Positions 9,994 through 26,210 of a DNA stretch of 45,524 nucleotides are shown here, piece by piece. The stretch comes from an uncultured Candidatus Saccharibacteria bacterium (GTDB lineage: Bacteria > Patescibacteriota > Saccharimonadia > Saccharimonadales > UBA10212), in contig CAZMNA010000002.1 of the NCBI GenBank assembly GCA_964567555.1, positions 71,795-117,318 on the forward strand. The letters run 5' to 3'. The translations under genes and the position numbers were made by a program. The first letter of the stretch is position 1, and each line of letters opens with the position of its first letter. The notes beneath the pieces were generated by a model. The model was not told where the DNA came from, did no database searches, and saw only the letters and a list, made by a program, of their open reading frames with translations.

Positions 9994-12806
9994 AGTTCGC
10001 CCCAGTTTTTGCCTATTAAAATATCAGCTTTAAGTTTTACAGGCAGTTTGTAGGCCGATTCCATTACGTCTTTGACTAGTTTGCCGACTCTTTCTGCCTG
10101 ATTAGCCGGCGTCTCTAAAATCAAGCTGTCATGAATCTGCAAAAGTATTTTGCAATCATCGTCCAGCTTAGCGGCCAGCTGAACCATGGCCAGCTTCATA
10201 ATATCGGCGGCCGTCCCCTGCATGGGATGGTTGATAGCGGCGCGGTAAGCCGCCTCCCTCACGATGAAATTACTTGAGTGAATATCCGGCGTGGGCCGGC
10301 GCCGGCCCAGCAAAGTCTCTACATAGCCCTGCTTTTCTGCCAGAGCACGAGTTTTTTCTATGTAGGCTTTGAGGGCTGGGCGGATTTGGAAATAGCGTTT
10401 TATAAAATCACGGGCTGCACCAAAATCCATGCCAGTGGATTGGGAAAGGGCGTGCGGGCCAAGGCCATACATGATGCCAAAATTGACCTCTTTAACAGAT
10501 GAGCGCTGAGTTTTGGTGACCTTGTCTGCTGGGATACCGTAAAGTTCGGCTGCCGTTTCTGCGTGAATGTCAGCATCATTGTTAAAGGCCTTTATCATGT
10601 TGCCATCACCACTCAGAGAAGCCGCAATACGGAGTTCAAACTGGCTGTAATCCGCACTGATAAGCAGGTTACCTTTTTCTGCCACAAAGGCTGTACGGAT
10701 ATTGCGACCAAGCTCCGTCTTGACTGGAATGTTCTGCAAATTGGGGCCTTCTGAACTTAACCGACCGGTTGGTGCGACAGTTAAATTGAATGTTGTGTGC
10801 ACGCGCGAGTTTTTATCAACCTGTCCGGGCAGAGTGTCTGCATAAGTATTTTTGAGCTTAGTGGCCTCGCGGTACTGCGAGATTAAATCGATGATAGGAT
10901 GGGCGCCTTGGAGTTTAGCAAGTTCGCTGGCAGCGGTTGAGTAACCAGTCTTTCCTTTCTTAATGCTCCACGCCCCTTGCACCATACCAACCTGCTCACC
11001 GGCAGAGCCGGTAACACTGTTGGTACTGGCGACGGCTGACTGCGTTGAAGCCTGCGTCTGCTCCTTCAGCGCACCATCTTTGTGCGCCTTAGTCCGCTGC
11101 TCGGCTTCGCCTTGTCCCCCACTCGCCTGCACAAAGCGTGAACTGCCTCGTGTCGGTAATTGAAGTTTTATAAACAAAACTTCGGCCAGCTGAATTGGCG
11201 AACTGATGTTGAACTCAAAGTCGGCATAACCATAAATTTTTTGTTCAATGTCGCTGATATCGCCTTCCAGCTTGGCAGCAAACTTCTTTAAATAGCTGGT
11301 GTCTAGTTTGATGCCGGCCATCTCCATATCCGCCAAAACGTGTGTTAGCGGCCATTCAATTTCTTTAGCCAGCTTGTTCACTTTGGGCATTTGCTCTAGC
11401 GCCAGCTTCTGGCCACTGTAAAGTTCACTAGTTACGGCCATGATTTCATCGCCCCGGGCCAACAAATCCTCGGTGGGCAAATCATCCAGGCTAGGGCCGT
11501 CATAATCAAGACCGGCTGAGGCTAGTTCTGTCAGGCTTTGGGCGCGTACCAATGGATTTATCAAAAAAGCGCCGACCAAAATATCGTGTTCTACCGGAGG
11601 GTAATCTACGCCTAGATTTTTTAATACCTTGAGGCCATTTTTAACGTCATAGCCGATTAAACTTTTGCCTTTGAGGATTTGGCCGACTGCTTTGGCGGCT
11701 TTAGCGCCATCTAGACCAGCCAGGTCAAAACCAAGCGCCTCGGTTGGGTTGCCTAAAATTATCATTCGCGGGTCCGCGCCGTGCGCACCTGTGGCCCGGC
11801 TATATATAAAAATTTGCTCGCCGGCCAGTTTTAGCCCCGCCAGCCCCGTGTCACGCGCAATAATTTTGTACTTGGGCAGTTTGATTTTTGATGCAATTTG
11901 GTTGGCCGGTGCATCCGGTACCTGCATGTTGGCTGGCAAATTGCGCAGCAAGCTCCTAAACTCCAGCTGTTCCAGCAGTTTATGCAGGTGAGTTACATCA
12001 ATTTTAGAACTGTCCATCTCTTTGAGGTTGAGTTTCATCGGCGCGTCACACCAAATAGCGGCAATTTTTTTGCTCAGATATGCGCTGTCTTTGCCGGCCA
12101 CCAGTTTTTTACGCACGGAGTCTTTTATTAGGTCAATATTTTCATACACACCGTCCAGGGTTTTATATTGTTTGAGCAGTTCAATGGCTGTTTTCTCGCC
12201 AATGCCCGGTACGCCCGGGATGTTATCGGAACTATCACCCTTTAAGGCTTTAAGGTCCAAAAATTGCGTAGCCTGAAGGCCATATTTGGCCTCAAAACTT
12301 TCCGGATGGTATTCCTCTATGTTAGAAAAGCCTTTTTTGAGCGCATAGACCTTAACGTGGTGGGTAATTAGCTGGAGTACGTCCAGATCGGAGGTAATTA
12401 GCAGTGTTTCAACGTCTTTTTTCTCGGCCTGCACAGCAAGCGTTCCCATAATATCGTCGGCTTCATAATCATCCAGCTCATAAAGCGGCCAGCCAAAAGC
12501 GCTAAGCAGGTCATGCAGAATCGGGATTTGGGTATAAAAGTCCGGGGGAGCCGGTTTGCGCCCAGCTTTGTACTCCGGATACATCTCTTTGCGTTTTCTA
12601 ATGTTGGTTTTGGGCTTGTCCCACGCCACGCAGACATAATCTGGCTGAAGTTTTTTAATTAGCTCCAGCGCCATAGCGGCAAAACCAAACACACCGCCGG
12701 TGGGTACGCCGTCACCCGTAGAAAGATTGGGCATGGCGTAATAACCACGGTAAAACACACTTTTACCATCAATAATCGCCAGCTTTTTTCTAGCCTCCGC
12801 CATCAC
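9990..12806 (-). CDS. polA: DNA polymerase I with a 60-aa in-frame insertion
   Basis: 5' nuclease motifs (IDGKS..YRGYYA, YEADD, GDSSDNIPGVPGIGEK) and polymerase motifs (GRLSSEGPNLQNIP, ADYSQFELR, KEVNFGIMYG, QGTAAD, LLQIHDSL). Confidence 0.97.
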   Translation of the reverse strand: MMAEARKKLAIIDGKSVFYRGYYAMPNLSTGDGVPTGGVFGFAAMALELIKKLQPDYVCVAWDKPKTNIRKRKEMYPEYKAGRKPAPPDFYTQIPILHDLLSAFGWPLYELDDYEADDIMGTLAVQAEKKDVETLLITSDLDVLQLITHHVKVYALKKGFSNIEEYHPESFEAKYGLQATQFLDLKALKGDSSDNIPGVPGIGEKTAIELLKQYKTLDGVYENIDLIKDSVRKKLVAGKDSAYLSKKIAAIWCDAPMKLNLKEMDSSKIDVTHLHKLLEQLEFRSLLRNLPANMQVPDAPANQIASKIKLPKYKIIARDTGLAGLKLAGEQIFIYSRATGAHGADPRMIILGNPTEALGFDLAGLDGAKAAKAVGQILKGKSLIGYDVKNGLKVLKNLGVDYPPVEHDILVGAFLINPLVRAQSLTELASAGLDYDGPSLDDLPTEDLLARGDEIMAVTSELYSGQKLALEQMPKVNKLAKEIEWPLTHVLADMEMAGIKLDTSYLKKFAAKLEGDISDIEQKIYGYADFEFNISSPIQLAEVLFIKLQLPTRGSSRFVQASGGQGEAEQRTKAHKDGALKEQTQASTQSAVASTNSVTGSAGEQVGMVQGAWSIKKGKTGYSTAASELAKLQGAHPIIDLISQYREATKLKNTYADTLPGQVDKNSRVHTTFNLTVAPTGRLSSEGPNLQNIPVKTELGRNIRTAFVAEKGNLLISADYSQFELRIAASLSGDGNMIKAFNNDADIHAETAAELYGIPADKVTKTQRSSVKEVNFGIMYGLGPHALSQSTGMDFGAARDFIKRYFQIRPALKAYIEKTRALAEKQGYVETLLGRRRPTPDIHSSNFIVREAAYRAAINHPMQGTAADIMKLAMVQLAAKLDDDCKILLQIHDSLILETPANQAERVGKLVKDVMESAYKLPVKLKADILIGKNWGEL
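10965..11144 (-). mobile_element. 180-nt in-frame palindromic insertion in polA (RPE-like)
   Basis: Interrupts LPTRG|IKKGKTGYST. Ends AGTTCACGCTTTGTGCA and TGCAAGGGGCGTGGAGC pair with G-U wobbles. Internal GGC-GAA-GCC and GCGCAC/GTGCGC hairpins. Confidence 0.65.
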
Positions 12807-12830
12807 GCTAAATTATACGCGTTACTAAGC

Positions 12831-13871
12831 TTATTGCTCAGGTGTGGTTGGATCGACTTCTAAGATCTGGCGCAGTCTTTGTAGCTCAACTGCAGCTTTG
12901 TGCGCCTCGCTAGCCACCTGGCCAAGCGGCGGCTGGGATGGATCTTCACCTTTTACGTCGGCAAGCTCGTGCGTACCATATGTTACGACTCCGATGTTTC
13001 TGGTTTTACCGACGCGTTCTAGCTCAAGCATGGTCATTACAGCATCTGTTTCCCTTGACGGTTGATAAGTTGAACTGGTAACAAAGCCCACTTCTCGGTC
13101 CTCACTTTCAGGCAATTGGGCAAGGAAATTATTTATTACTTTCATCAAGCCAGCTGGTCCTAAGGTATTATATTTCTTAGGGTCGTCAGGGTCTGGATAT
13201 TCACGATCAACTCTGAGTAGATGCACTGGAGTTATATGATCGACAAAACCTAGGTTCTTTAGTTGCCCTGTTTTACTTTCTGTCTGTACTTCGCCCTCAA
13301 TGCTATAGCCAAAGTGTAAGACTTCCACTGGGCGAGGTTGCATACGAGGAATTTTATAAGCTACCTGTTGGGCCACATCGTACTCAGTCGGGCCGACAGA
13401 GTCTGTATTTAGACCAAGTACTCTCGCGGTAATCTCTCTTTCCTTAGCTTTGTCCTCATCAGTTGCAGGAATTGCCCGCTCAGGGGTAGCGGCTATAATG
13501 ATGGCACTTGGTTTAGCTGTTGCGTCTGACAAAACTACAAAGATTTCAGCTAGCATTTTATGCGCCTGACCGCCTTCTATAATTGCAACGTAACCATTCC
13601 TTAAACCAGCCTCGCTAGCAGTTAGATTGGTCTCCCGGCCAACGCCAAGTTTAGCCATGGCCTCACGAAGAGCGGTCTCCTGGCCAGTATCTAAAGTATA
13701 TTCAGTGTCCGCTCGACGCTCGCCAGGTTCGGGAAAAATTTCAAGCGGACTTGCGCCACTATTGGCCGGCTCTACAGCAACCACCGCTTCTGCTAAAGCC
13801 CCCGCCATTTTATCTAGTGTTTGGCGGGCTTTTTCTTCAGCTGAAACCGGGTAGCCTTCGTGTTTTGTCAT
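12831..13871 (-). CDS. Hypothetical protein (possible distant YdcF/DUF218-like fold)
   Basis: 346-aa ORF with TATAGT 7 nt before the ATG. FVTSSTYQPSR only loosely resembles the YdcF VTSxxHxxR motif. Confidence 0.55.
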   Translation of the reverse strand: MTKHEGYPVSAEEKARQTLDKMAGALAEAVVAVEPANSGASPLEIFPEPGERRADTEYTLDTGQETALREAMAKLGVGRETNLTASEAGLRNGYVAIIEGGQAHKMLAEIFVVLSDATAKPSAIIIAATPERAIPATDEDKAKEREITARVLGLNTDSVGPTEYDVAQQVAYKIPRMQPRPVEVLHFGYSIEGEVQTESKTGQLKNLGFVDHITPVHLLRVDREYPDPDDPKKYNTLGPAGLMKVINNFLAQLPESEDREVGFVTSSTYQPSRETDAVMTMLELERVGKTRNIGVVTYGTHELADVKGEDPSQPPLGQVASEAHKAAVELQRLRQILEVDPTTPEQ

Positions 13872-13904
13872 AAATCAGACTATACCATATTTTCTGACTA
13901 ATTG

Positions 13905-14471
13905 CTAGAGGTTGAGCGTTTTTTTGACTTGAGCCTTGAAAGCTTCTAAGTCATTACTGCCGTTCTCAATAAAAATGTCGGCGTTTTTTTTAACAGCAGC
14001 CATATTGAGCGTGGCGTCATCGCCGCTGTGGGCCATCTCAGCTTTTTCTTCGGCTAAAAACTGTTGATAGGTCTTTTGGTCTTTATCACCTTGAGCGCGG
14101 CTGTAGATGCGCTCGTAACGAACGTGTGGGCTTGCGTCTACCCAAACAACCTTACCGCCAAGCTCGTGCACACGCTGCACTTCCCCGGGATGACGCAAAC
14201 TACCCACTACAAGACCTTCATATTTTTTACCGGAGGATTCACACAGCTTCACGGCCCGGTCTACCACCGCACCCATACCCTCTTTTTGACGCCACTCAGT
14301 CGTCAGAGCAGACATTTGCTCACGCTCCAGCGGGCGTCCAAGACGTTTGAGTTCCGGGATGATTAAATCACCAGAAGATGATACAAAAAACCAGCCATAA
14401 TCATCCTTTAACAACGCTGCCAAGCTATCTTTGCCCGAACCATTTGTGCCGGCAATACCTAGAATTTTCAT
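13905..14471 (-). CDS. P-loop nucleotide kinase (dephospho-CoA/NMP kinase-like)
   Basis: GIAGTNGSGKD Walker A, SLRHPGE, VWVDASPHVRYERI..R. Confidence 0.75.
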   Translation of the reverse strand: MKILGIAGTNGSGKDSLAALLKDDYGWFFVSSSGDLIIPELKRLGRPLEREQMSALTTEWRQKEGMGAVVDRAVKLCESSGKKYEGLVVGSLRHPGEVQRVHELGGKVVWVDASPHVRYERIYSRAQGDKDQKTYQQFLAEEKAEMAHSGDDATLNMAAVKKNADIFIENGSNDLEAFKAQVKKTLNL

Positions 14472-15079
14472 TTATTATCTCTCTCGCCTTCGATATATAG
14501 CCGAACAAGGTCTGGAACAAGTTCGTCCACTTTGTTAGGCTCAATGCCTATCCTCTCAGCTAATTCTCCTCTTAGTTGCCGAGCGCCGGCAAGCCCACCA
14601 ATACCGAGTTCGTTGCCCACTTCGGCCCATGTTCTACCTTCATCTATCATTTCCAGCGCTTCAAATTCTTGGGGACTAAGACCAACAGCAATACTGCCTA
14701 AATCTAGGCTGGTTTGTGTTTTTGCTTTTTGAATATCTTCCGCCATTTTTTCCAAGGGTAGCGTATGAGGACCTAGGTGCATCCCCGCTCTCTTGAAGAG
14801 TCTTTGTGCATTGGTCTTGGATATAGCCATGTAGTCCGCTATTTCGCTAAAGGGCATCGGCCCGCTTTTTCCGGATAAGCCCAGGTGGAGTTCGTAAGCT
14901 CGGCGCAATTTATAATCTAAATGGCGCAGAGCTTGTAGGGCCATTTTGCGAGGGTCGTCCTCAACAATTCTTGCAACGGCTTCGGGCACATGCATTGCCA
15001 GTTCCCTTTCCAGCTCCTCAATCGTAGGCAGCTCCCTGGATCTGGGGTCAAAAGGGTCGGGTGTTTCTTCTTCAGCCAT
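14468..15079 (-). CDS. Hypothetical protein with sigma70 region 4-like HTH and LuxR-like HTH
   Basis: ALRHLDYKLRRAYELHLGL...MPFSEIADYMAISKTNAQRL.KRA and LSPQEFEALEMIDEGRTWAEVGNELGI. Confidence 0.55.
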   Translation of the reverse strand: MAEEETPDPFDPRSRELPTIEELERELAMHVPEAVARIVEDDPRKMALQALRHLDYKLRRAYELHLGLSGKSGPMPFSEIADYMAISKTNAQRLFKRAGMHLGPHTLPLEKMAEDIQKAKTQTSLDLGSIAVGLSPQEFEALEMIDEGRTWAEVGNELGIGGLAGARQLRGELAERIGIEPNKVDELVPDLVRLYIEGERDNK

Positions 15080-15088
15080 TTGAAAAAT

Positions 15089-16339
15089 TTATTGTAAATA
15101 CTCGTGCAGGCGGCGGGTATCTTTGTTCTTGCGCAGTTTGGCCAGAGCCTTGGCTTCAATTTGACGAATGCGCTCACGGGTGACGCTAAATTCTTGGCCG
15201 ACTTCTTCAAGCGTGTGGCTTTTGCCGTCTTCTAGCCCAAAGCGTAGCTTTAAAATCTTTTGCTCGCGGTCGGTTAAAGACGACAATATCCGGCGGACTT
15301 GTTCTTTGAGCAGTTGCTCAGAAGCCGACTCGGTCGGGGTTTTGGCGTCTTCATCTTCAATAAAGTCACCCAGTACTGAATCTTCCTCATCGTCGCGCAC
15401 AGACGCGTCCAGGCTGGAAATGTCCTGCTTGATTTTCATGATGTGCTCAACTTTATCTACGTCCATTTCCATAGCCACGGCGATTTCTTCGTTGGTAGGT
15501 TCGCGGTTGAGCTCTTGGGTTAATCTACGCTGGGTTCTAAGCAGTTTATTGATGGTCTCTACCATATGCACCGGAATACGAATGGTACGGGCTTGGTCGG
15601 CAATGGCCCGGGTGATGGCTTGGCGGATCCACCAAGTGGCATAGGTGGAGAATTTAAAGCCGCGGTCAGGGTCAAATTTTTCCACCGCTCTAAGCAGGCC
15701 GGTATTGCCTTCCTGAATTAAGTCCAGTAAATCCAAGCCACGCCCTACGTAACGCTTGGCGATGGACACAACCAGGCGCATGTTAGCCTCGGCCATGGCG
15801 TCCTTGGCGCGTTTTTCACCGCGCTTTACCCGGCGGGCCAGTGCCAGCTCTTCCTCGGCCGTCAGCAGCGGGATTTTACCGATTTCACGCAAGTAAAGCC
15901 GCACAGAGTCGTCTGAAATATCATCCAGGAAGGCGGCGTCTGGCGTGACGGTTTTTTCTTCGGGTTCGTCTTCCCATTCGGCTAAGTCGGTGGCTTCTGG
16001 AGCCTCCACCGGCACCAGCTCAATATCGTTTTCGCTCATTTCGGCATAGAGCCGCTCCAGCACATCAATATTGGCAGGCGTATCGGGTATAAGAGTAAAT
16101 ATTTCGCGCTGTTCTAGCTTGCCATCGCGCTTGGCCTGTTCCAATAACTGGGAAATTTCGCGGTCGTAGCTTTTGGAGGTACGGCGTGGGCCGCGTTTAG
16201 CAGCCACTTTAGCTACAGCCGGCTTTTTAGCCACCGGTTTCTTAACCACCGGTTTTTTAACGGCAGCAGCTTTTTTGGGGGCAGCTTTTTTTATCGCCGG
16301 TTTTTTGGCTTTGGGCTTCGCGGTATCTTTTTTAGGCAT
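15089..16339 (-). CDS. rpoD: Primary RNA polymerase sigma factor RpoD
   Basis: [37 protein letters not shown]-type region ([33 protein letters not shown]), [13 protein letters not shown]. Confidence 0.97.
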
Positions 16340-16344
16340 AGGGG

Positions 16345-18102
16345 CTAACCTTCCTGATTCATTAGTTGATTAAGAGTATCCACCTTTTTTATAAGTTGTT
16401 TCATCTTTTTATCATCACTAGTTTCGCGCATTTGCGCGGCTAGTTTTTGCTTTTGGAGAGTTATGTAGCGGCTAATAAGCCGGTGAGCTAAATTGTTAGA
16501 CTGCTCTTCTAGGTCACTAAAGGGCAGGTCTTTATATAGCTCCTCAAATTGTAACGTTATTATTTTAACATAATCAGATATATCCCGCAATTTGGCAGCA
16601 GTTTTTGCATCCTTGGTAAAGTCCGGGTTATCCTGCAAAAATCCTAGAACCTTTTGGCGTGTATCATCTGTAAAATATTCGGCTTTTATATTTTTGAGTA
16701 GCCAGCGTAGTTTGGGCTGAGCAAACGTGATGGCCAAAAAATGGTCCTGCATACGCTGGTATTCTGACGCTACAACATCAATCTCGGTCTCCAGCCCTTT
16801 AGGTTTTTTAAATAGCGGCTGAGCTACGGGAGATTTGGTGAACTTGGCCTGCACGGCTTCTAAGCTGGTATCCGTCAATTCGGCGATTTTTTTAAGATAA
16901 TGTTCCCGCTCTACTGGATCGGTCAGTGCGCGGATGACGTTAAGCAGCGCATCAGTAAAAGCCCGTTTGCCATCGGCAGTGGAAAGATCCAGTTCAGCTG
17001 CATAAAGCTTTATGAGCCAATCGGGCGCATAGACAGCCGCTTCGACCGCCCTTTGCCAGGCTCCGGCGTCTTTGCTTACCAGCTCGTCGGGATCCTTGGC
17101 GCCGGTAATGGTAATAATTTTGAGCGATACGTCTGTCTTTTGGGCTAGCGGAATAATGCGTTCGGTGGCAGCAATACCGGCGCTGTCGGCATCAAAACAA
17201 AGCCGGGTATCACCGGTGAAACGTTTTAGAATTTTAAGATGATGCTCGGTCATGGCCGTACCGGCGCTGGCTACCACATTGGGAAAACCGGCCTGGTGAC
17301 AGCCAATCACGTCCATATTGCCTTCTACCACAACCACGTAGCCGTCTTTGCGGATAGACGCCTTGGCCAGATCCAGCCCATACACCTGGCGGCTTTTGTC
17401 ATACAAAATAGTTTGAGGTGTATTGATGTATTTGGGAGCGCCAGGCTCGTCTGCCAGCAATCTGGCCGTAAAGCCCACCACCGAACCGGCTTGGTCGGCT
17501 AGGGGAATCATGATCCGGCCGCGGAACATATCGCGCGCACCGCTTGCGCGCATCGTTACCAAACCTGCCCGCTTCATCTCATCGGTGCTAAAGCCGCGCT
17601 TGGTCAAAAAATTAGTTAAGGCTGTGCCGCTACTGGGCGAATAGCCCAACCGCCATTGCAAGATAGTCTTTTTGGTTAAACTCCGCTGCCTTATTAAGTA
17701 CTTTAGGGCGGGCTGATTTGCGGAAAGCTGTGTTTGATAAAACTTGACGGCCAGCTCCAGAGCTTCAGTGGCCCGAGTTTTTAATTTAGTGTTAGCTGTT
17801 TTTGGGCCAGTTTTGTACTGATCTAGGTCCACGCCGGCTTGACGGGCTAGGTGTGCTAGCGCACCAGCAAAATCCAACCCTTCCATCTCCATGATAAAGC
17901 TAAAGACGTCGCCGCCTTTACCAGAGCTAAAATCGTGCCAAATCTGTTTTTCGGGGCTGACTATGAAACTCGGTGTCTTTTCATTAGTCCAGGGTGAGAG
18001 GCCCTTAAAATTGCGACCGGCGCGTTTTAGCTGAACGTACCCACTAACTACGTCTTCAATATTCAAACGAGCCTTAACTTCACCTGCCGCATCCATATCC
18101 AT
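16345..18102 (-). CDS. dnaG: DNA primase
   Basis: [54 protein letters not shown]. Confidence 0.97.
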
Positions 18103-18143
18103 AAGTTTATAGCGCGCGGGCTCAACCTAAAAGCACGAGCAGT

Positions 18144-18220
18144 TTATGTATTGGCCGTGACTAGTCCGTAGGAATGTCTTATCAAGTCTTTGATTTCATC
18201 ATCACCCACTGACCGGTAAG
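18144..18220 (-). pseudogene. Duplicated 3'-end fragment of an mmcQ/yjbR-family gene
   Basis: Translates LTGQ(-1 nt)GDDEIKDLIRHSYGLVTANT*, compared with the intact gene end LTGQLSWDEVKDLINHSYNLVIG* at 18307-18378. Confidence 0.8.
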
Positions 18221-18306
18221 AGCGGCTCCGCCTTATGAGACAAACCAAAGGTGTTTCTCATCGCGCCGGGCAAAAAGCGCGATTTTTGCTCGGGCTCTCT
18301 TTTCCT

Positions 18307-18627
18307 TCAGCCAATCACCAGATTGTAAGAGTGATTTATTAAGTCCTTGACCTCATCCCAAGAAAGTTGTCCCGTTAAAACAATTGTGTTCCAGTGCTTT
18401 TTGTTCAAGTGGTAGCCCGGCATGACGGTTTCATACTTCTCACGCAGAGTTTGGGCTAAAAGTGGATCACATTTTAGGCTTACTTGGATGGGCTCTTTTC
18501 CTTCTTGGATGAGAGCAAACATTTTGTCACCAACCTTATAGACAGCCGTCTTTTCACCGAACGGATAATCAAGCTTGGCGTCTGGCAGGCTTAAAATATA
18601 CTTTTCCAGGCGCGAAAAGCTTAGCAT
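18307..18627 (-). CDS. MmcQ/YjbR family protein
   Basis: DYPFGEKTAVYKVGDKMFAL, LKCDP, PGYHLNKKHWNT. Confidence 0.9.
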   Translation of the reverse strand: MLSFSRLEKYILSLPDAKLDYPFGEKTAVYKVGDKMFALIQEGKEPIQVSLKCDPLLAQTLREKYETVMPGYHLNKKHWNTIVLTGQLSWDEVKDLINHSYNLVIG

Positions 18628-18886: not shown

Positions 18887-19297
18887 TTATTTTCCGGCCG
18901 GTTTAAAGTCTAAGCAGGCCGAATTAATACAATAGTGCTTGTCGTGAACTTCGCCCGGTACGTCTTCAAATAAATGTCCCAGGTGGCTGCCGCAATTAGC
19001 ACAAGAAATCTCTACCCCACGCATCCCCATGCTGTCATCGTCCGTCAATTTAATTGCTTCAGAGCGAGCAACATCAGAAAAGCTAGGCCAGCCCGTAAGC
19101 CCCGGAGCAGTTGATTCAAACTTGGTGTCAGAACTAAACAGCTCCGCGCCGCAGACAACGCACCTATACATGCCTTTTTCAGAATGATTAACGTATTTAC
19201 CTGAAAATGGTGCCTCTGTGCCCTTTTCGCGCAATAAATGATACTGCTCTGGCGTCAGCTTCTTTTTTAATTCTTCGTCATCTAACTGCTTGGTCAT
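18887..19297 (-). CDS. msrB: Peptide-methionine (R)-S-oxide reductase
   Basis: LTPEQY..LREKGTE.PFSG, CVVCG, GWPSF, CANCGSHLGH.F, YCINS. Start set at ATG 19297, just after the argS stop. Confidence 0.95.
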   Translation of the reverse strand: MTKQLDDEELKKKLTPEQYHLLREKGTEAPFSGKYVNHSEKGMYRCVVCGAELFSSDTKFESTAPGLTGWPSFSDVARSEAIKLTDDDSMGMRGVEISCANCGSHLGHLFEDVPGEVHDKHYCINSACLDFKPAGK

Positions 19298-19298
19298 T

Positions 19299-20951
19299 TT
19301 ACACTTGCTCCGGCGCATCTATGTTAAGTAAACCAAGCCCGTGCTTTAAAACATCTGCGTAGGCACCAACCAGTTTTAGCCGGGTAGCTTCCCGCTCATT
19401 GCCAATCACACGATTCTTCTCATAAAAGCGGTTAAAGGCTTGGGCTAGCTCGTACAAATAAGTGCAGACGTGTGAGGGCAATAGCTCCCCAGTGGCTTGG
19501 GCTACCACATCTGGATATTCACTGATTTTGCGCGCTAAAGCGCGTTCATCGGACTCTAAATTATCAATCTTCCCGGCTTTGACGTCACCAGCTTTTTTCA
19601 AGATACTTTTGGCCCGCGCATGAGCATACTGCAAATACGGCCCGGAGTTGCCTTCTAAACTGACCGATTCCGCTGGATTGTAGACCATGTCAGCGCCTAT
19701 ACGATTTTTTAAAAAGCTGTATTTCACTGCGCCTAGAGCTACTGTAAAGTTTTCTTTTTGGTTGATCTTTTTGTTAGCTGTATCGGCCATATCCAACACT
19801 GCTTCGGCGCTTACTATATTGCCCTTGCGGCTACTCATCTTTACACCGCCGGGCATTTTTACCAATCCATGGCTGACGTGCGTAGTCTTCTTTACCAGCT
19901 CCGGGGCAAATTGTTCGACTGCTTTTAGTACAACCTGCATATATTCGTAAATTTCGTTGCCGGTAATTACCACCGATTGGTCAAAATGATAATCCTCCCA
20001 CTTTTTTAGCAGTAAGCCTATGTCTTTGGTCTCATAAGTCGGCAGACCCTGACTATTTATAAATACTCGCGTATGCATATTGTGAACTTCGCCCTTAAAC
20101 ACCACTGCGCCCTCTGATTTTTCAAAAACCTTGCCCATGTTTTCTTTAACAGCTTTGAGACCTAGTTCTACTGTTTGACTTTCCGGATAATATTTCTCGA
20201 ATTGAGTTCCAATCTTGGCATAAAACTCGTCAAAATAGTCGTAGCTCCACTGGCGCGTAGTCCAGTATATTTTTGCGAGCGAAGAATTTTTATCATTGTG
20301 TTCGTACAGACTATAAATTTGCTTGTTTAGCGCTTCGATTGTTATTTTAGCCTCAGGTTTCTCGTAAAAATCATTGCCCTCAACGTAACGAGCAGTCATC
20401 CATTGCGCTCTCCCATCTTTTGGAACGTTGCTGAGCTTGTCCGGCAGCTCACCACCAAGGTTTTGGATGATGGCATACATTGTCTTGGCAACGTGTAGCC
20501 CGACATCGCCGCCAAAATTCACCCGATGGACTGTCGCGCCAGCGGATTCTAACAAGTTAGCGATAGCGTCACCCACGATACTCGTATAAAGATGGCCAAC
20601 GTGCAGCACCTTGAAAGGATTAGGATCAGAGTACTCTGCCACTATTTCTTGGTCCTTGAGCGGTTTAGGTATTTTAGTGGCGCCAATTGCAGCTTTGGCA
20701 ATAGCCTCGTCCGGCAACGTTATGTTAATAAAGCCCGGGCCGGCTACTTTGGCGCCGTCAATTTTAACGGCTATAGATTCTGCGATATCGCTAGGCTTTT
20801 TATCCAGTTGCTTGGCGAGCTGCATGGCAACATTGGTAGAAAAATCACCAAACTTCTCGTCCGGCCGGCTAAGCTGTGGCTCTACTTCCTGCCCAAATAA
20901 ATCCCGACAGGCAGACTTGAGTAAATTTTTTATGTCTTGGCTATTCACCAC
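19299..20951 (-). CDS. argS: Arginine--tRNA ligase
   Basis: FGDFSTN, GPGFINI, EYSDPNPFKVLHVGH, GDVG, KMSSRKG, EGNSGPYLQYAHAR. Confidence 0.96.
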   Translation of the reverse strand: MVNSQDIKNLLKSACRDLFGQEVEPQLSRPDEKFGDFSTNVAMQLAKQLDKKPSDIAESIAVKIDGAKVAGPGFINITLPDEAIAKAAIGATKIPKPLKDQEIVAEYSDPNPFKVLHVGHLYTSIVGDAIANLLESAGATVHRVNFGGDVGLHVAKTMYAIIQNLGGELPDKLSNVPKDGRAQWMTARYVEGNDFYEKPEAKITIEALNKQIYSLYEHNDKNSSLAKIYWTTRQWSYDYFDEFYAKIGTQFEKYYPESQTVELGLKAVKENMGKVFEKSEGAVVFKGEVHNMHTRVFINSQGLPTYETKDIGLLLKKWEDYHFDQSVVITGNEIYEYMQVVLKAVEQFAPELVKKTTHVSHGLVKMPGGVKMSSRKGNIVSAEAVLDMADTANKKINQKENFTVALGAVKYSFLKNRIGADMVYNPAESVSLEGNSGPYLQYAHARAKSILKKAGDVKAGKIDNLESDERALARKISEYPDVVAQATGELLPSHVCTYLYELAQAFNRFYEKNRVIGNEREATRLKLVGAYADVLKHGLGLLNIDAPEQV

Positions 20952-20965
20952 TTAATAATAAGCTT

Positions 20966-21628
20966 TTATGACGTGCTTTTAAAACCGCCGGCTAGCCGCC
21001 AGACAGCAAAATAACCAACGCTTAGGGTCACAAAAAATAGGCTGGTCATGTTTATGGCGCTGGGGTGGCCAAGCGGATCAATAATGCGGTCTGAAACGTT
21101 TAGAATCAGCCCGCCAGGGTTAGATAGCGCATCCCAACTGTTCCAGCGCAGTATGCGACCTAAATAAATGGCAAAGCTGACAGTTAAAATTATTGCCTCT
21201 ACCAGCTGGTATGCCCGGGCCGGCTTAAAGCGCCTGAGCAGCTGCCGGTGCACTAAAAGCAGGCTCCTAAAACCGAGCAAAAACCCCGTCATAGTTAAAA
21301 CGCCAAGCAGTACCGCATCAAAAACAACGGATATTTCACCCGTGGGGTAAAGATGAATAAAGTCCGTAATAACATACCAGGTATTGGGCAAGAAGAAGAT
21401 CCAAACGATGGTGAGTAAGATATTTTGCCAGGTGCTCCAAAGCTGACGGGCTAACCTTTGCGTCAACCACCAGCCGGAGGCATAACCCAGCCAAGCCAAA
21501 GCCAAGTTACCCGGGATGAATCCGTAACGCCAGGTGCCGGCCATAATAAAGCGGACACCAACCAACCCCAGCACCAGCAGGCTTAGAGCAACTGCTGCTT
21601 CTAGGAAGTTTCTCTCCTCTTTTGACAT
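20966..21628 (-). CDS. DUF1361 family membrane protein
   Basis: NLALAW, WIFFLPNTWYVITDFIHL, AIYLGRILRWNSWD. Confidence 0.85.
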   Translation of the reverse strand: MSKEERNFLEAAVALSLLVLGLVGVRFIMAGTWRYGFIPGNLALAWLGYASGWWLTQRLARQLWSTWQNILLTIVWIFFLPNTWYVITDFIHLYPTGEISVVFDAVLLGVLTMTGFLLGFRSLLLVHRQLLRRFKPARAYQLVEAIILTVSFAIYLGRILRWNSWDALSNPGGLILNVSDRIIDPLGHPSAINMTSLFFVTLSVGYFAVWRLAGGFKSTS

Positions 21629-21654
21629 ACCACCAATTATACCAGTCTGGCAAT

Positions 21655-21698
21655 ATCTAAATTTATATATTTACATGTTTAGATGTATGTGTTAAATT
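21655..21698 (+). promoter_or_regulatory. Sigma70-type promoter and inverted repeat (probable ArsR operator)
   Basis: TTTACA (21670-75)-N17-TAAATT (21693-98). Inverted repeat ATCTAAA-N16-TTTAGAT spans the -35. Confidence 0.5.
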
Positions 21699-21704
21699 AA
21701 ACGG

Positions 21705-21977
21705 GTGGGTGATAACAAAGTGATTGATGTTTTAAAAAGTTTGGCCGACCCTACCAGGCTGGCGATAGTACGTAGCCTGGCAACTTGCGAGAGCGGCCAA
21801 AAAAGCTGTAGTGACATTTCCGCCAAAATTAAATTGAGCCAGCCGGCCATGAGCCACCATTTTGGCAAGCTGGTAGATAGCGGCGTGGTTATTGAAGCCA
21901 AAGACGGTACCAAGAAAATTTACCGGCTTAACACCGCCCTGCTGGCAACAGTAGGTATTAACGCCGCTAAATTATAA
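21705..21977 (+). CDS. ArsR/SmtB family transcriptional regulator
   Basis: LKSLADPTRLAIV, LSQPAMSHHF..L..SGVV. Confidence 0.9.
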   Translation: MGDNKVIDVLKSLADPTRLAIVRSLATCESGQKSCSDISAKIKLSQPAMSHHFGKLVDSGVVIEAKDGTKKIYRLNTALLATVGINAAKL

Positions 21978-21986
21978 GGAGAAACT

Positions 21987-22562
21987 ATGAAATTAATGGT
22001 CATTTGGGGAAGTTCCCGCCAGGACCGCCAGGGCGGCGTAGTCGCTGACTGGGTAAAAACGGGTGCTCAAAAAGACGGCCGTTTTGAAGTAGACTTTGTT
22101 GATTTTCAAAAGACTGTTCTACCCTTTTTTGATGAACCCATCAGCCCGTTTTCTATGAAATCAGCCGGTGCGGACTACACTCACCCGGAAGGCAAAGCCT
22201 GGGCCGAGCGAGTAGCCAAGGCGGATGGTTTTATAATTGTTACGCCCGAATATAACCACGGCTATACAGCTGTACTTAAAAACGCCCTGGATTGGGTTGG
22301 GCCTGAATGGGTTGATAAGCCGGTTGGTTTTGTCAGCTACGGCGGCATTTCCGGCGGCGCCCGCGTCGTTGAACAACTGCGGACTGTGACGATTGAACTT
22401 GGCCTGGTGCAAGTCGCCAACCCGATACATTTTGTCTACTTCCCTCGGGAGTTTGACGAACAAGGTAAGCCCAAAGAAGCCGAAAAATATAACGGCCAGC
22501 TAAAAAAGATGTTTGATGAGCTCAACCGCCTGCATGGGCTGTTTAGTAAATCAAGAGCCTAG
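21987..22562 (+). CDS. NADPH-dependent FMN reductase
   Basis: GSSRQDRQG, ADGFIIVTPEYNHGY..VLKNALDW, VSYGGISGG. Confidence 0.9.
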   Translation: MKLMVIWGSSRQDRQGGVVADWVKTGAQKDGRFEVDFVDFQKTVLPFFDEPISPFSMKSAGADYTHPEGKAWAERVAKADGFIIVTPEYNHGYTAVLKNALDWVGPEWVDKPVGFVSYGGISGGARVVEQLRTVTIELGLVQVANPIHFVYFPREFDEQGKPKEAEKYNGQLKKMFDELNRLHGLFSKSRA

Positions 22563-23230
22563 GAAAAGAAGTGCAGCCACTGCGGGCTGTCCACGATATG
22601 CTCCAGCCTAAAGCCTAAGTCTTTAAGCGTACTGTCACGCTGGGCGTCGCTTGAACCCAGCACATTCAAAGCTACATACGGGTCATGTACATTCAGACCG
22701 CAAAAAGCCAGCGTGCCCCAATTAATCGGGTAGAGCATTTGTTCAACGGAGGCTTTGTGCTGTCCGCCAGCCGAATAATACTGGGCCGGGTGGCCGGCCG
22801 ACATTATCATCATTGCCTGCTTACCACGCAGCAGCCCATTTTCATAAAACTTGCCACTGTCCCATGCAAAGCCCATGGCCAGTACCCTATCAAACCAACC
22901 CTTAAGCATGGCCGGCACGCTTGACCACCAAAGCGGTGATATAAAAATTATGACGTCGGCGTTTGTAACCTTTTGCATCTCGCCGGTTATGTCCGGAGAA
23001 AAGGCCATGGACAATCTAGCAGCGTGTTTTTGCTCCATCATGTAATTAAAATGTTCGCCGGATGTAGTTACAAAATCCCATTTTTGGGCAACGGGGCTAA
23101 AGCCTTGGCCATACAGATCAGTAAGCACCACGTTATGGCCCTGGCGGCCTAAAACCTCCAGCACCACGTTCTTCATTGCGGCTGTAAAACTGCTCGGTTC
23201 AAAATGCGAATAAACAATTAAAATATTCAA
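22559..23230 (-). CDS. NAD(P)H-dependent oxidoreductase (flavodoxin-like, quinone reductase family)
   Basis: ILIVYSHFEPSSF, DLY, PLWWSSVPAMLKGWFDRV. Confidence 0.9.
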   Translation of the reverse strand: MNILIVYSHFEPSSFTAAMKNVVLEVLGRQGHNVVLTDLYGQGFSPVAQKWDFVTTSGEHFNYMMEQKHAARLSMAFSPDITGEMQKVTNADVIIFISPLWWSSVPAMLKGWFDRVLAMGFAWDSGKFYENGLLRGKQAMMIMSAGHPAQYYSAGGQHKASVEQMLYPINWGTLAFCGLNVHDPYVALNVLGSSDAQRDSTLKDLGFRLEHIVDSPQWLHFFS

Positions 23231-23283
23231 ACTGCCACCCTCTGGTAATACTAATGATTATTGTAACAGTTTAGGGACCGGTT

Positions 23284-23718
23284 TTAGGCAGCAATCGCGT
23301 GGACCGATTGGTCGTTTAGACGGAAAATCATCTGGCTAATCTTCCAGGTGCCACTTGATGTCTTGACCAAAATATAGTCAACAGAGCCGCGGACCGTCCA
23401 AACATAGCGTTCTCCCCGGTCAGCTACATAATGTTTGTGTTCCACGGACGTGGTAACGCGGGCGCGGCGCGAGCTAAGCATCCGTACACCCAAACGATTA
23501 ATGAAGCGGCGAGTGGCATAAAAGTAACTGCCGATTTCTTTGCGCCAGCTGTCAATCAGTCTTTTGCGCGGCACATTGGCGGGTGTCTCACCGGACAGTG
23601 ATTTATTGTCAACAAATGGGTTCTTTACAAAGTATTCTTCCAATTGCTCCCACTGGCGCAAGTCTTGCAAGCTGGAAACGTGGGTTACGATTTCTTTTAT
23701 TTGCTCTTTGTCTGTCAT
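23284..23718 (-). CDS. SnoaL/NTF2-like domain protein
   Basis: QDLRQWEQL..YF...PFVDNKSLSG...WKIS pattern of SnoaL_4 proteins. Confidence 0.65.
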   Translation of the reverse strand: MTDKEQIKEIVTHVSSLQDLRQWEQLEEYFVKNPFVDNKSLSGETPANVPRKRLIDSWRKEIGSYFYATRRFINRLGVRMLSSRRARVTTSVEHKHYVADRGERYVWTVRGSVDYILVKTSSGTWKISQMIFRLNDQSVHAIAA

Positions 23719-23826
23719 GGGTGCCTCGCTATCACTTGGTTACGCTTTTATAATACCGCGATTTAGCTGAGAAAATCCTAAGAATGTTACTTGTTCTTCC
23801 CTCTCGAGCCTAGGTAGGTACTTAGC

Positions 23827-24579
23827 CTAAACAGGCTTAGCCAACGCCCATTGCTGGAAGAAGTAAGTCCTCAGAGCTTCAATCATAGCTTCGTTATAAA
23901 TAACTACGCCACTTCGCTCTTTGCTCTGTTTAGGATTGCTGGCAGACAGAATAGCTGACGAATTATCGAAAATATTTAAATGGTAGCCTTCGCCGGGTAG
24001 ATGCCTGACCGACACGCCCATGGCTCGCCAACGCTTGATTAGCATATTATTTTCTTTGTCGTTTTTATGAAAAATAAACTTAGGACTGACATCTCTGCCG
24101 ATAGCATTTTCCGTAATTGACCAAATGGATTCTGGCACGGGTTCGCCAATGCTTATCACTAAAAATTCTTGCTCGGCTTCTTTAGCTAGATCAACGAACC
24201 TATCAAACAGTTCTTTCCGCCCAGTTAGCAACTCCATGTTTAGGCGATTAGGATTTTTCTTGATATCTAACTTCCTAACAGCCGACTGACTAGAATCTTT
24301 AATTTTAAGGATTTGCTTGGTTGCCAACTGCTCTATAGCGACACTTGGAGTTACGGCTTGAAACTGCTTTGGAGTGACATCCAATTCTTTTATGAGTCCT
24401 TTGTGCAGAAGGGCGTTGGTTGCCCGGTAAACACTATTAACTATAATGCTCAGCCGTTCGGAGATATTCTTAGCAGTCAAAGCTCCTTCATTGACTAGTA
24501 GCAAATACATTCTGATTTCGTCAGAACTTAGTCCTAGCTCGGATAGATACCCTTTAACAGAGCTTGAAGAGTAGTCCAC
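23827..24579 (-). CDS. TrmB family transcriptional regulator
   Basis: LSELGLSSDEIRMYLLL...LTAKNIS...VYRATNALLHKGLI N-terminal wHTH, plus a C-terminal PLD-like effector region. Confidence 0.8.
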   Translation of the reverse strand: MDYSSSSVKGYLSELGLSSDEIRMYLLLVNEGALTAKNISERLSIIVNSVYRATNALLHKGLIKELDVTPKQFQAVTPSVAIEQLATKQILKIKDSSQSAVRKLDIKKNPNRLNMELLTGRKELFDRFVDLAKEAEQEFLVISIGEPVPESIWSITENAIGRDVSPKFIFHKNDKENNMLIKRWRAMGVSVRHLPGEGYHLNIFDNSSAILSASNPKQSKERSGVVIYNEAMIEALRTYFFQQWALAKPV

Positions 24580-24585
24580 ACGCAG

Positions 24586-24609
24586 ATTTTAGCAAAGTTT
24601 TGCTAAAAT
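24586..24609. promoter_or_regulatory. 11-2-11 palindrome containing divergent extended -10 boxes (probable TrmB operator)
   Basis: ATTTTAGCAAA-GT-TTTGCTAAAAT gives TGcTAAAAT on both strands. Confidence 0.55.
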
Positions 24610-24643
24610 TGCTAATTATCTCATTGCCGAAATATAGTAATTA

Positions 24644-26005
24644 TTGAATAATATGCACACCATGAAGAGACATGAGACCGTAAAAGAAAGTTCAAATTTA
24701 GCTAACTATGAAACCATGCGCTTGCCCGCCATGGACCCTTTAGATGCCTTGGAAACATTGGTCGGAAGTGATCCAAACAGAGACTTTTGGGTATATGGTT
24801 CGGATGATGAAACCATCATGGCGCTTGACCCAATCGGTGAGATTGTTGTTGCTGGGGATCAAATATATTCATCCTGGGCAGGTGAACACCTGGCTCATGA
24901 AACCGCATCTGACCCTTTCGCTCAAGTTGGCCGCCTGCTAAACGAAATGCCAGTAGAAAATTGGCGAGCTTTCGGCCACATATCATTTGATGCAGCTGGT
25001 TACTATTTGCCTTATCCCCTGCAAGCATCCACTCCCGTGATGAGATTCGTTATTCCAAAAACAGAGCTAGTTTTCACTAAGGAAACGACCGATATTCGTA
25101 CTCTCGGCAATCCAGCCCAAATAGCAGAGTCTTTAAGTAAGATTGAGCATTTCTCGCACTCTGAACCGAATGTACCAGCTCCTAGTGAAACGGATCGAAA
25201 AAGCTACGAGCGTGGAGTCGCAGAATTAGTAAAAGATATCCGTGCCGAGCATTTGGCTAAGGTCGTTTTTGCTCGTCACGTGCATTTACCCGGTAGTATA
25301 GATATCTTCTCGACACTTAACTCTATCCGACAACCGAATTCAGCAGCACGGACTTATTGTTTCCATGAAAAAGATTTGACTGGTATAGGGTCAAGCCCCG
25401 AACTTCTGATGCGAACAACTCCCGAAGGATTGATTCAAACAACTCCGCTAGCGGGGACGAGACCGCGGGGCGGAACGCCAGAACGTGATGCGGCTCTACG
25501 CCACGAACTCCAAACTGATCCCAAAGAAGTTATAGAACACATGCTGTCGGTAATACTCGTCCAGAAAGAAGAACTGAAAGGCATTTGCGAGACTGACAGT
25601 GTGTGTATTAAAGATGCGATGCAAGTCAAGCAATTTCGTACCGTCCAACACTTGGCATCTAGGGTGGAGGGGCAGCTCAAGGAGGGCTTAACGCTATGGG
25701 ATGGTCTGAGAGCGCTTTTCCCAGGAGTGACAGTTTCCGGCATTGATAAGCCTACGGCTTTAGAAAAAATTGCCCAGTTCGAAAAAGTGCCGCGCGGGCC
25801 ATACGCTGGTTGCGCAGGCTGGGTAGATTCAAACGGTGCATCTGATCTTACGATTACTCTTCGTTCTGCCTTTGAGGATGAAAATGGTGTTTCTATCAGC
25901 GCAGGGGCTGGCATTATCGCTCAATCGTTCCCCACGCGAGAGTACGATGAAACAGCTCACAAGATGCGGACAATACAATCTCTATTAGTACTGTCGGAAT
26001 CTTAA
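24644..26005 (+). CDS. Chorismate-binding enzyme, salicylate synthase (Irp9/MbtI-like)
   Basis: WRAFGHISFD, KVVFAR, SSPELL, PLAGTR, DPKEVIEHMLSV, VQHLAS, LFPGVTVSGIDK, RGPYAG, LRSAF, AGAGII. The exact start codon is uncertain. Confidence 0.75.
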   Translation: MNNMHTMKRHETVKESSNLANYETMRLPAMDPLDALETLVGSDPNRDFWVYGSDDETIMALDPIGEIVVAGDQIYSSWAGEHLAHETASDPFAQVGRLLNEMPVENWRAFGHISFDAAGYYLPYPLQASTPVMRFVIPKTELVFTKETTDIRTLGNPAQIAESLSKIEHFSHSEPNVPAPSETDRKSYERGVAELVKDIRAEHLAKVVFARHVHLPGSIDIFSTLNSIRQPNSAARTYCFHEKDLTGIGSSPELLMRTTPEGLIQTTPLAGTRPRGGTPERDAALRHELQTDPKEVIEHMLSVILVQKEELKGICETDSVCIKDAMQVKQFRTVQHLASRVEGQLKEGLTLWDGLRALFPGVTVSGIDKPTALEKIAQFEKVPRGPYAGCAGWVDSNGASDLTITLRSAFEDENGVSISAGAGIIAQSFPTREYDETAHKMRTIQSLLVLSES

Positions 26006-26023
26006 AAAGTTCCACTTTCTAAC

Positions 26024-26210
26024 TGGAGGGGGCAGGGATAGCGGCTACGCCTTCTCCGCTGCGGCGTGCTCAGAATAAATTCTTGCGCGCGTCCTCGCTC
26101 CGCCGAACCCTCTGCTCCGCAGCACGGGTTCTCAAGCTCTTAATTCCTGCCAACTTGTTCAGCCGGGCAAGCCCGAACGAACAATTTGGCGGGACAGACG
26201 GGTCTGGAAC
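26024..26210 (-). repeat. tRNA-linked palindromic repeat with two degenerate tRNA 3'-end fragments
   Basis: Minus-strand ATCCCTGCCCCCTCCA (26024-39) and ...ACCCGTCTGTCCCGCCA (26187-26203). 9-bp imperfect inverted repeat at 26031-39/26143-51; internal GAACCC/GGGTTC stem. Confidence 0.6.

Follow-up and report, generated by a model that had tools for sequence, protein, structure and literature searches.

A 45,524-nt stretch of DNA from an uncultured Candidatus Saccharibacteria bacterium (contig CAZMNA010000002.1, positions 71,795 to 117,318; referred to here as the window) contains copies of short interspersed repeats that are structured and non-coding and belong to two related families, called A-type and B-type elements in this study, and the 14-nt motif that first drew attention to this DNA is their optional 3'-terminal mini-hairpin. 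A preliminary description had treated the motif as a free-standing signal marking junctions at which DNA is integrated, but it proved to be the dispensable 3' end of structured repeats of 65-100 nt. Both families are undescribed as far as Rfam and the searched literature show. Both are probably mobile DNA of a non-autonomous kind, whose insertion would involve widely staggered breaks or template switching, and which the host tolerates and perhaps uses at the RNA level. The family itself, its structure, its scattered distribution, the duplications that flank individual copies and the geometry of the junctions are established, whereas the way of insertion is inferred. Genomes of Saccharimonadia (TM7) are very small and densely packed, and mobile DNA is considered scarce in them. 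If the mobility reading is correct, a conserved multi-copy element would show how insertions are tolerated in such genomes, with the duplication of the target keeping the gene that was hit intact.

The two motifs of the window are exact and located where they had been placed before: motif 1, AAGGCGGAGCCGCT, at 18234-18221 on the minus strand, 86 nt downstream of yjbR, and motif 2, AAGGCGTAGCCGCT, at 26053-26040 on the same strand. In 2.14 Mb comprising the window and related Saccharimonadia loci, the 13-mer AAGGCGNAGCCGC occurs 7 times against 0.26 expected, well above background; in six cases it forms the 3' terminus of an A-type core, and the remaining case is motif 2, the sole stand-alone occurrence. 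When up to two mismatches to the 14-nt motif are allowed, the window has 5 matches against 1.7 expected. The hexamer TGAGAA, also common to both window elements, sits in non-equivalent parts of them. The proposed linkage between the two loci is confirmed, and what they have in common is a terminal module that folds as a GC-GNA-GC mini-hairpin, with a stem that covaries between copies (GGC/GCC, GAC/GTC, GGCC/GGCC).

The A-type copy in the window is 87 nt long (18221..18307, minus strand) and starts on the A of the yjbR stop codon. It begins with a conserved 5' stretch, AAGGAAAAGAG, which is followed by two hairpins and the 3' module. Hairpin 1 (18263..18295, minus strand) has a conserved base, GCCCGAG...CCCGGCGC, while its upper stem and loop vary; hairpin 2 (18235..18261, minus strand), ATGAGA...TCTCAT, has a 12-bp stem with a conserved A.G mismatch; and the module (18221..18234, minus strand), which is motif 1, forms the mini-hairpin GGC-GGA-GCC. 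A covariance model, R1, built from 93 A-type copies has exactly one match in the window, at 18221-18307 on the minus strand (74.5 bits, E 5.5e-20). In rhizosphere runs that hold this genome, metagenome contigs pile up 3-10x on 18221-18296 only, including contigs with the same depth as this genome, and because the pile-up is confined to this interval the spacer carrying motif 1 is a dispersed repeat. Further A-type and B-type copies are found on metagenome contigs at the depth of this genome, and copies are also present on a 243-kb JGI contig and an 895-kb contig.

Homologues of the A-type element are present in loci of distant Saccharimonadales fetched via DnaG, which is 52-68% identical (L037, L022, L015, L009 and others). 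Scanning metagenomes with the conserved 17-mer CCCGGCGCGATGAGAAA gave 120 loci, 86 of them with an A-type element, and approximately 110 homologues were recovered in total from other Saccharimonadia and soil contigs. The core of about 75 nt consists of a conserved GGAAAAGAGCAG stretch, hairpin 1, GCGCG and hairpin 2 (ATGAGA...TCTCAT), with or without the AAGGCGNAGCCGC module; the consensus reads (A)AGGGAAAAGAGCAGCCCGAG, a variable stem-loop, CCCGGCGCGATGAGA, a variable upper stem and TCTCAT. The 3' module, (A/T)AGGCGNAGCCGC, is added in about a quarter to a third of the copies. GCGNA(A)GC follows the core within 20 nt in 24 of 99 A-type copies, mostly at an offset of 2-3, compared to 2 of 92 control windows.

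The covariance analysis of the spacers suggested in the preliminary description revealed strong covariation in the A-type family. RNAalifold and explicit pair counts identified 19 pairs, 13 of which have compensatory changes; 96.6% of the A-type alignment cells are paired, compared to 80.2% in shuffles, and the covariation score is 0.419 compared to 0.119 in shuffles, with slid controls reaching at most 0.13. Helices 1 and 2, in hairpin 1, are 94-99% paired with compensatory changes at 8 of 10 pairs, and helix 3, in hairpin 2, is 98% paired with a compensatory change at five pairs. Searches of the window and L126 against Rfam 15 gave no family with E <=10 overlapping an A-type or B-type element, and at the gathering threshold only tRNA and rRNA were matched in the window and 18 loci. 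Several more specific identities were considered and rejected. An extra 5' helix between the upstream flank and GGAAAAGAGCAG was discarded, as the longest complementary runs equal those of shuffled flanks. A tRNA-like minihelix formed by hairpin 2 and TACCA is weak, with TACCA in 5 of 95 copies and TAC in 19 of 95. In the alignment, GCGAUGAGA lacks the C3/U4 of a hammerhead ribozyme and no GAAA follows hairpin 2, and no Rfam ribozyme was matched; in a box C/D reading of GAUGAGA, core nucleotides are missing. Phage origin was also dismissed: six IMG/VR matches to the 17-mer are chance matches, and the A-type element is on none of them.

The mobility of the A-type element is suggested by its occurrence at different intergenic sites in otherwise syntenic regions. 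Synteny of yjbR, msrB and dnaG is kept in about 75 of 80 related loci. The dnaG neighbourhoods of 80 species hold 11 A-type copies in 10 species at different sites: after yjbR (L037, L042), before yjbR (L015), next to polA (L009, L022, L015), between dnaG and rpoD (L010), and elsewhere. Between yjbR and dnaG, no A-type copy is present in L001, the closest relative. The presence/absence variation among relatives that had been anticipated does exist. A separate difference affects the same interval: L003, L006, L012 and about 50 other loci have a gene of ~210 amino acids on the opposite strand between yjbR and dnaG (window 18103-18306), which is missing in the window and L001.

Flanking direct repeats provide the second line of evidence. 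Among 101 unique A-type copies, 17 have flanking direct repeats above the 99% quantile of a null distribution of mismatched flanks. Two of these are adjacent tRNAs resembling each other, while the other 15 are genuine target duplications of 21-50 nt, to which L042 adds one of 18 nt. Several are perfect or near-perfect: 38/38 in L114, 33/33 and 40/41 in L142, 42/43 in L145, 42/43 in L101, and 48/50 in L037. Every A-type target duplication covers a gene terminus, and therefore one intact copy of the gene remains. The duplicated part is the 3' end in yjbR, the first 13 codons in msrA (four contigs), the ribosome-binding site together with the ATG in rpsN, and the 5' end in an iscS-like gene. Thus the 3'-end capture initially proposed is accurate in that the target is often a gene 3' end and, at the B-type site, part of a tRNA 3' end, but 5' ends are duplicated as well.

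The junctions are asymmetric. The right duplicate can begin directly after the module, as in AAGGCGAAGCCGC followed by CTAAC in L037 and AAGGCGTAGCCGC followed by ATCTAC in L134; among module-bearing copies it does so in five, and it begins 5-7 nt further on in the four copies at the msrA site. In copies lacking the module, 3-7 nt separate CTCAT from the start of the right repeat. On the other side, the distance from the end of the left repeat to the A-type core is 1-48 nt. Across the family, then, the module marks an edge of the inserted DNA and this edge abuts the duplicated target, as first noticed in the window; the module is absent, however, from half of the copies with clear duplications and from 65-75% of copies overall. 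No junction microhomology is evident in the two readable insertions (L037 and L142). Between left repeat and core, L101 and L142 have a stretch that codes for the same residues as the continuation of the right copy but uses different codons.

In the window, the target is the 3' end of an intact yjbR gene (18307..18627, minus strand; PF04237, Pfam E 2e-31), and the displaced copy of that end lies at 18144..18220 on the minus strand, directly after motif 1. This duplicate, previously reported as an mmcQ 3' end, is real, though diverged and frameshifted: it reads LTGQ and then, in the next frame, GDDEIKDLIRHSYGLVTANT before a stop. It is identical to the gene's own end at 43 of 59 aligned nucleotides, and up to 82% identical to yjbR ends of other genera (L014, L019). 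On average it is closer to typical relatives than the present end of the gene is (means 0.71 vs 0.67), which is suggestive only as to the source of the duplicate. The divergence in L101, L142 and the window suggests either old events with partial gene conversion or transfer of a gene end plus element between lineages by recombination.

The B-type unit is 64 nt long (26040..26103, minus strand) and consists of a hairpin with a GAATTTATTC loop and the terminal module (26040..26053), which is motif 2. There is a 3-4x contig pile-up on 26050-26110, to which a 58-kb contig at the depth of this genome contributes, and homologues are found in L126 (7370-7499, 95% over 56 nt), L178 and L195. The module stem covaries here also, with GGC-GTA-GCC in the window, GAC-GAA-GTC in Logan contigs, and GGCC-AAA-GGCC in L126. 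The GAATTTATTC-loop hairpin is also in many A-type copies, and local alignment of the B-type unit with the A-type copy of L130 scored 16 against a shuffle maximum of 15. The B-type spacer was nevertheless rejected as a canonical A-type copy, as the covariance model does not match it and only this hairpin and the module are locally similar.

A tRNA-3'-like fragment had been described directly after motif 2. The fragment, ATCCCTGCCCCCTCC (26025..26039, minus strand), is real; it corresponds to the 3' strands of a T stem and an acceptor stem and resembles the 3' end of the tRNA-Ser(GGA) located 1.2 kb upstream (27273..27363, minus strand; ARAGORN and Rfam), the likely source or target of a partial 3'-end copy. 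It is not, however, an undivided piece. With the B-type unit removed, the left flank AGGGTTCG (26111-26104, minus strand) joined to ATCCCTGCCCCCTCC matches the tRNA-Ser(GGA) 3' end AGGGTTCGAATCCCTGTCCCTCC with a score of 16, and 0 of 500 shuffles were as good; because the match is significant only once the intervening 64 nt are removed, the tRNA-like piece is split by the motif-bearing unit and not merely preceded by it. The unit therefore interrupts a ~25-nt partial tRNA-Ser 3'-end copy within its T loop. The 5' half of the T-arm-like stem is also the 3' arm of a hairpin, H1 (GAACCC ... GGGTTC, 26105..26131, minus strand), which covaries among four B-type copies (CCC/GGG, CCCT/AGGG, CCTC/GAGG, CCGG/CCGG). 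The flanks of the unit in L178 match the neighbouring tRNA-Met likewise, and in further metagenome copies the unit is flanked by pairable T-stem halves that differ from copy to copy, two of them ending in CCA. All four sequenced B-type copies are downstream of a tRNA gene. The region is not a full tRNA-Ser pseudogene, since nothing upstream of the T arm is significant (p 0.74). In L126, a 35-nt tRNA-Ala-like minihelix (7500-7534, GGGGGCG...CGTCTCCACCA, with G3.U) lies between the B-type unit and an antisense A-type copy; it repeats the neighbouring tRNA-Ala 3' end and has a sub-threshold Rfam tmRNA match of 14.7 bits.

According to the mobility reading, insertion would duplicate a long and variable stretch of the target, 18-50 nt and perhaps about 77 nt in the window. 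In a compact genome such a stretch would span a gene terminus, so that the gene stays intact in one copy with a residual fragment next to it. On this view the yjbR 3' end of the window was the target of an A-type copy, and what used to be the end of the gene would persist as a decaying fragment; a B-type unit lies within the T loop of the partial tRNA-Ser 3'-end copy. Insertion may proceed through widely staggered nicks or a replicative template switch, presumably driven by a factor encoded elsewhere.

Several observations weigh against this reading. The window encodes no integrase, transposase, reverse transcriptase or HUH gene among its 42 substantial open reading frames (ORFs), and every ORF with a Pfam match is housekeeping or metabolic (polA, dnaG, rpoD, argS, groEL, valS, a murein ligase, tsaD and others). 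The absence of a nearby enzyme gene noted previously thus holds within the window, where the tyrosine or serine recombinase or HUH gene that might have accompanied the motif is likewise lacking. Comparison of empty and filled alleles in close strains, which had also been suggested, revealed no empty allele, either in ten contigs whose encoded YjbR is identical or in four runs from the rhizosphere. Deep conservation and compensatory changes are more typical of selected RNA than of selfish DNA. Some duplicates are far more diverged than the element between them (65-73% identity in the window), and the synonymous recoding in L101 and L142 points to homeologous recombination or to import together with a gene end. 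A recognisable duplication is kept by only about 15% of A-type copies, there are no terminal inverted repeats, and the varying distance on the 5' side is unlike the precise cut of a transposase. Finally, the T arm split by the B-type unit is not a simple target-site duplication.

The main rival of mobility is that the A-type element is a functional RNA module acting in cis on tRNA, rRNA and ribosomal-protein transcripts, as a signal for processing or stability, an insulator or a terminator; it would be kept by selection and spread via ordinary duplication and recombination, with the flanking repeats as by-products. This is possible but the less favoured explanation, and the two may be compatible. 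In addition to the strong covariation, there are invariant unpaired nucleotides across genomes as distant as the DnaG identities indicate, and at pair 55-86, where 73 copies have GC, 18 have GU, also in keeping with RNA. Placement is precise in many cases. Nineteen A-type copies are 4-13 nt upstream of a tRNA gene on the same strand, with one more at 34 nt, while only two copies have an opposite-strand tRNA at that place, so that 20 of 22 tRNA-adjacent copies are sense. Three copies directly upstream of 5S rRNA are sense, as are all ten copies within 23S rRNA genes. The latter occupy variable sites, among them the helix-45 region, a classical location of intervening sequences (IVS); in other genomes unrelated inserts are found at these sites, and in ordinary bacteria a hairpin of 12-18 nt. 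Further copies lie between rplW and rplB, rpsS and rplV, and rplE and rpsN, and upstream of tuf, dnaJ and rpoD.

Orientation within stable-RNA operons can be related to the opposite strand of the element. The antisense of hairpin 1 is predicted to be terminator-like, which in the window (18266-18293, plus strand) amounts to an 11-bp stem with the T-rich tail GCTCTCTTTT; the conserved GGAAAAGAG is the complement of a U tract in all A-type copies, and the family consensus can be read in the same way. A GC-rich hairpin followed by a U tract, as in an intrinsic terminator, is found on the antisense strand only. Because the antisense looks terminator-like, counter-selection may explain why copies within stable-RNA transcripts are sense only, the sense orientation being presumably tolerated in rRNA and tRNA transcripts. 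An rrn boxA reading of the antisense GCTGCTCTTTTCC was rejected, as its orientation is wrong for rRNA and tRNA genes and the terminator-like reading fits better. With respect to protein genes, orientation is nearly random (26 copies downstream on the same strand vs 28 opposite; 19 sense vs 10 antisense between co-directional genes), which counts against a functional RNA module. Such a module also leaves unexplained the near-perfect duplications of 33-50 nt around individual copies and the sporadic, non-orthologous positions in syntenic regions.

The copies in 23S genes bear on an earlier report that 64 of 66 rRNA insertions in Saccharibacteria are short, are not of intron type and have no encoded endonuclease (PMC11270868); A-type elements account for at least part of these, and would, if the mobility reading holds, identify most of the short insertions known from this class. 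None of the RNA runs contained the window, and soil metatranscriptomes aligned to one 23S locus contained only rRNA of other bacteria, which skips the insertion sites, and are uninformative on excision. Other insertion sites in the 23S genes of L091 and L168 are occupied by inserts (ATTCATTAGTTCATTAGTTCATTCG...) of high AT content and with internal repeats, which have no relation to the A-type element.

A more far-reaching form of the mobility reading is that these repeats represent an undescribed kind of small mobile element, one that duplicates 20-50 nt through staggered breaks or target-primed copying, has subtypes homing to tRNA 5' ends and T loops, and has been co-opted for RNA signals. 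We regard this form as speculative and on balance doubtful. If it were true, the duplication would make insertions at gene and tRNA ends self-healing in genomes almost without intergenic DNA, and co-opted signals in pre-tRNA leaders and at 23S insertion sites would be one explanation for short, uncharacterised rRNA insertions.

It is unlikely that the duplicated ends are attL and attR scars of tyrosine-integrase islands, with the unit as an arm beside attR in decayed mini-islands that have lost their integrase (CIME-like). The locus of the B-type unit invites the comparison. The interval from tRNA-Ser(GGA) to a SnoaL-like gene (23284-23718) encodes a PLP-dependent enzyme, a chorismate-binding enzyme and a TrmB-type regulator (23750-27272), genes that were undetected in 40 related loci inspected (tblastn, E <= 1e-5), where an ABC transporter, a tRNA and the SnoaL gene are close together; it is a variable, island-like hot spot without an integrase. 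A second tRNA-3'-like remnant, frag1 (TCCAGACCCGTCTGTCCCGCCA, 26187..26208, minus strand), resembles a tRNA 3' end from T loop to CCA and is conserved upstream of the SnoaL gene, beside different cargo genes, in L020 (4080-4101; 21/22 nt, or 27/28 with flanks) and L009 (764-785); it may be an old att scar. The block from T arm to 3' end is typically the one duplicated by T-loop-targeting integrases, and a block of that kind, ~25 nt long, is what accompanies the B-type copies downstream of tRNA genes. Given the hot-spot locus and the second remnant at the edge of the interval, an integrase history of the tRNA-end copy is plausible, although a T-loop-targeting unit is then needed for the split. 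As an account of the elements themselves, an island at a tRNA or gene 3' end was rejected despite the hot-spot character, since an attR should be uninterrupted and the B-site block is not. In addition, the A-type duplications involve many unrelated sequences, beyond the range of a site-specific recombinase, and no integrase was seen in the window or beside the copies inspected; the ORF between tRNA-Ser and the tRNA-like block is the PLP enzyme (PF00291).

The model of the preliminary description is less probable still. It holds that the GCGNAGC mini-hairpin in single-stranded DNA (ssDNA) alone marks or creates capture junctions at gene and tRNA 3' ends. It would do so with the help of an ssDNA recombinase of the HUH or integron type or without any dedicated enzyme; in the latter case it might, for instance, shield the 3' end of ssDNA that is incoming or nascent. 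Where present, the module does abut the duplicate or lie within a few nucleotides of it; its covarying stem indicates that the fold is under constraint, the window has no enzyme gene, and import of a gene end plus element, by recombination following the uptake of DNA, would agree with the diverged, recoded left copies in L101, L142 and the window. Enzyme-less capture is not favoured, however, because the hairpin is dispensable, as its absence from so many duplicated copies demonstrates, and the duplication of gene 5' ends does not fit capture at 3' ends. Nothing tested points to recombination of folded ssDNA by HUH or integron-type enzymes: these systems, including IS200/IS605 and repetitive extragenic palindromes (REP), do not create the long duplications found here, the features of REP, PATE and attC are absent, and no RAYT, TnpA or IntI was seen.

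A third occurrence had been placed in polA and failed every test. The match, AAGGCGAAGCCG (11113-11102), is only 12/14 and lies in an in-frame insert of 59 amino acids (10968..11144, minus strand), a low-complexity segment of the polymerase domain directly before the conserved IKKGKTGYST. The insert is absent from related polA genes spanning the site in 10 of the 14 alignments listed, and from related polA genes of the same metagenomes, while a low-depth variant contig has it; the motif there shows no repeat pile-up in the metagenome and no covariance-model match. The polA insert is accordingly judged to be outside the system, and its motif copy is most likely a coincidence inside a lineage-specific insert. 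That the two exact motifs are themselves a chance resemblance of GC-rich 14-mers is very nearly out of the question: a 13/14 match between two arbitrary 14-mers is calculated to be expected by chance in 45 kb, and the generic mini-hairpin makes up 9 of the 14 nt, but the excess of AAGGCGNAGCCGC, its position at the same point of a defined element in six of seven cases, and the dispersed-repeat character of both sites refute this explanation for the exact sites and leave it for the polA copy only.

For annotation, gene-end fragments and tRNA-like scraps beside these repeats are by-products rather than pseudogenes of separate origin, and the A-type element is a candidate signal for RNA processing or termination. 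Because several copies are located at contig ends, the repeats break metagenome assemblies of Saccharimonadia. The window has other features of a repetitive or tRNA-like nature. Two copies of a 33-nt palindrome (5346-5378 and 7475-7507; TTTGGCSMCACCTTTTCGGCAAAAGGTG..AAA) are 88% identical and 2.1 kb apart, and may be shared terminator hairpins. A second serine tRNA (CGA, 43993-44082, plus strand) is 72% complementary to the first over 64 nt, and a further tRNA (45470-45524, plus strand) is cut by the end of the window.

Several known classes of element can be set aside. A miniature inverted-repeat transposable element (MITE) does not agree with the A-type alignment, in which the two ends, GGAAAAGAGCAG... 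and ...CTCAT(AAGGCGNAGCCGC), do not form an inverted repeat, or with duplications of 18-50 nt that are variable rather than of short fixed length, and the window has no insertion sequence (IS). REP/REPIN-RAYT elements and IS200/IS605-derived PATE were rejected on account of the long duplications, and no Y1_Tnp-type protein is encoded among the 42 window ORFs. Neither junction has the GTTRRRY of an integron attC site, the fold is two independent hairpins and not one long bulged palindrome, and the window has no integrase. A diversity-generating retroelement was also rejected, as the L037 copies differ at 2 of 50 positions, one of them at A, and the window has no reverse transcriptase.

The repeats ERIC/IRU, Correia/NEMIS, RUP/BOX/SPRITE, RPE of Rickettsia and MIRU of mycobacteria are short (40-150 nt), non-coding, hairpin-forming and multi-copy. 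They occupy intergenic or transcribed spacers of compact genomes, sometimes over stop or start codons, and vary between strains; Correia and RUP have terminal inverted repeats with a 2-nt duplication, while other such families have none. Compared with these family features, the A-type and B-type elements are similar in being short, hairpin-forming, multi-copy spacers. We know of no family of this kind reported to have variable target duplications of 18-50 nt, to be conserved class-wide through compensatory changes, or to keep a fixed distance of 4-13 nt from a downstream tRNA gene. Long duplications are known from Mycoplasma, in which IS1630 (IS30 family) duplicates 19-26 bp and IS1634 (IS4 family) duplicates 17 to several hundred bp. 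These resemble the present elements in combining small genomes with unusually long and variable target duplications, but they are autonomous, with a DDE transposase and inverted-repeat ends, whereas the A-type and B-type elements are 65-100 nt long with no ORF, no terminal inverted repeats and no such transposase seen.

The A-type copies in the helix-45 region and at other variable 23S sites recall the IVS of helices 25 and 45. Classical IVS, however, are site-bound extended stems cut by RNase III, while the A-type element is also found beside tRNAs and protein genes. The B-type site is similar to genomic islets at tRNA 3' ends in having a partial direct copy, from T arm to 3' end, downstream of an intact tRNA with variable cargo (the PALP gene), but here a conserved repeat of 64 nt interrupts the T loop of the copy, and an integrase is absent. 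The target-primed insertion of short and long interspersed nuclear elements (SINE/LINE) has, to our knowledge, no bacterial precedent, and no reverse transcriptase, tail repeat or 5'-truncation series was seen with the present elements, many of whose duplicated copies are without the 3' module. They are nonetheless like SINE/LINE insertions in their variable and fairly long duplications, a 3' junction that is better defined than the 5' junction, a small 3' stem-loop, and a non-autonomous character.

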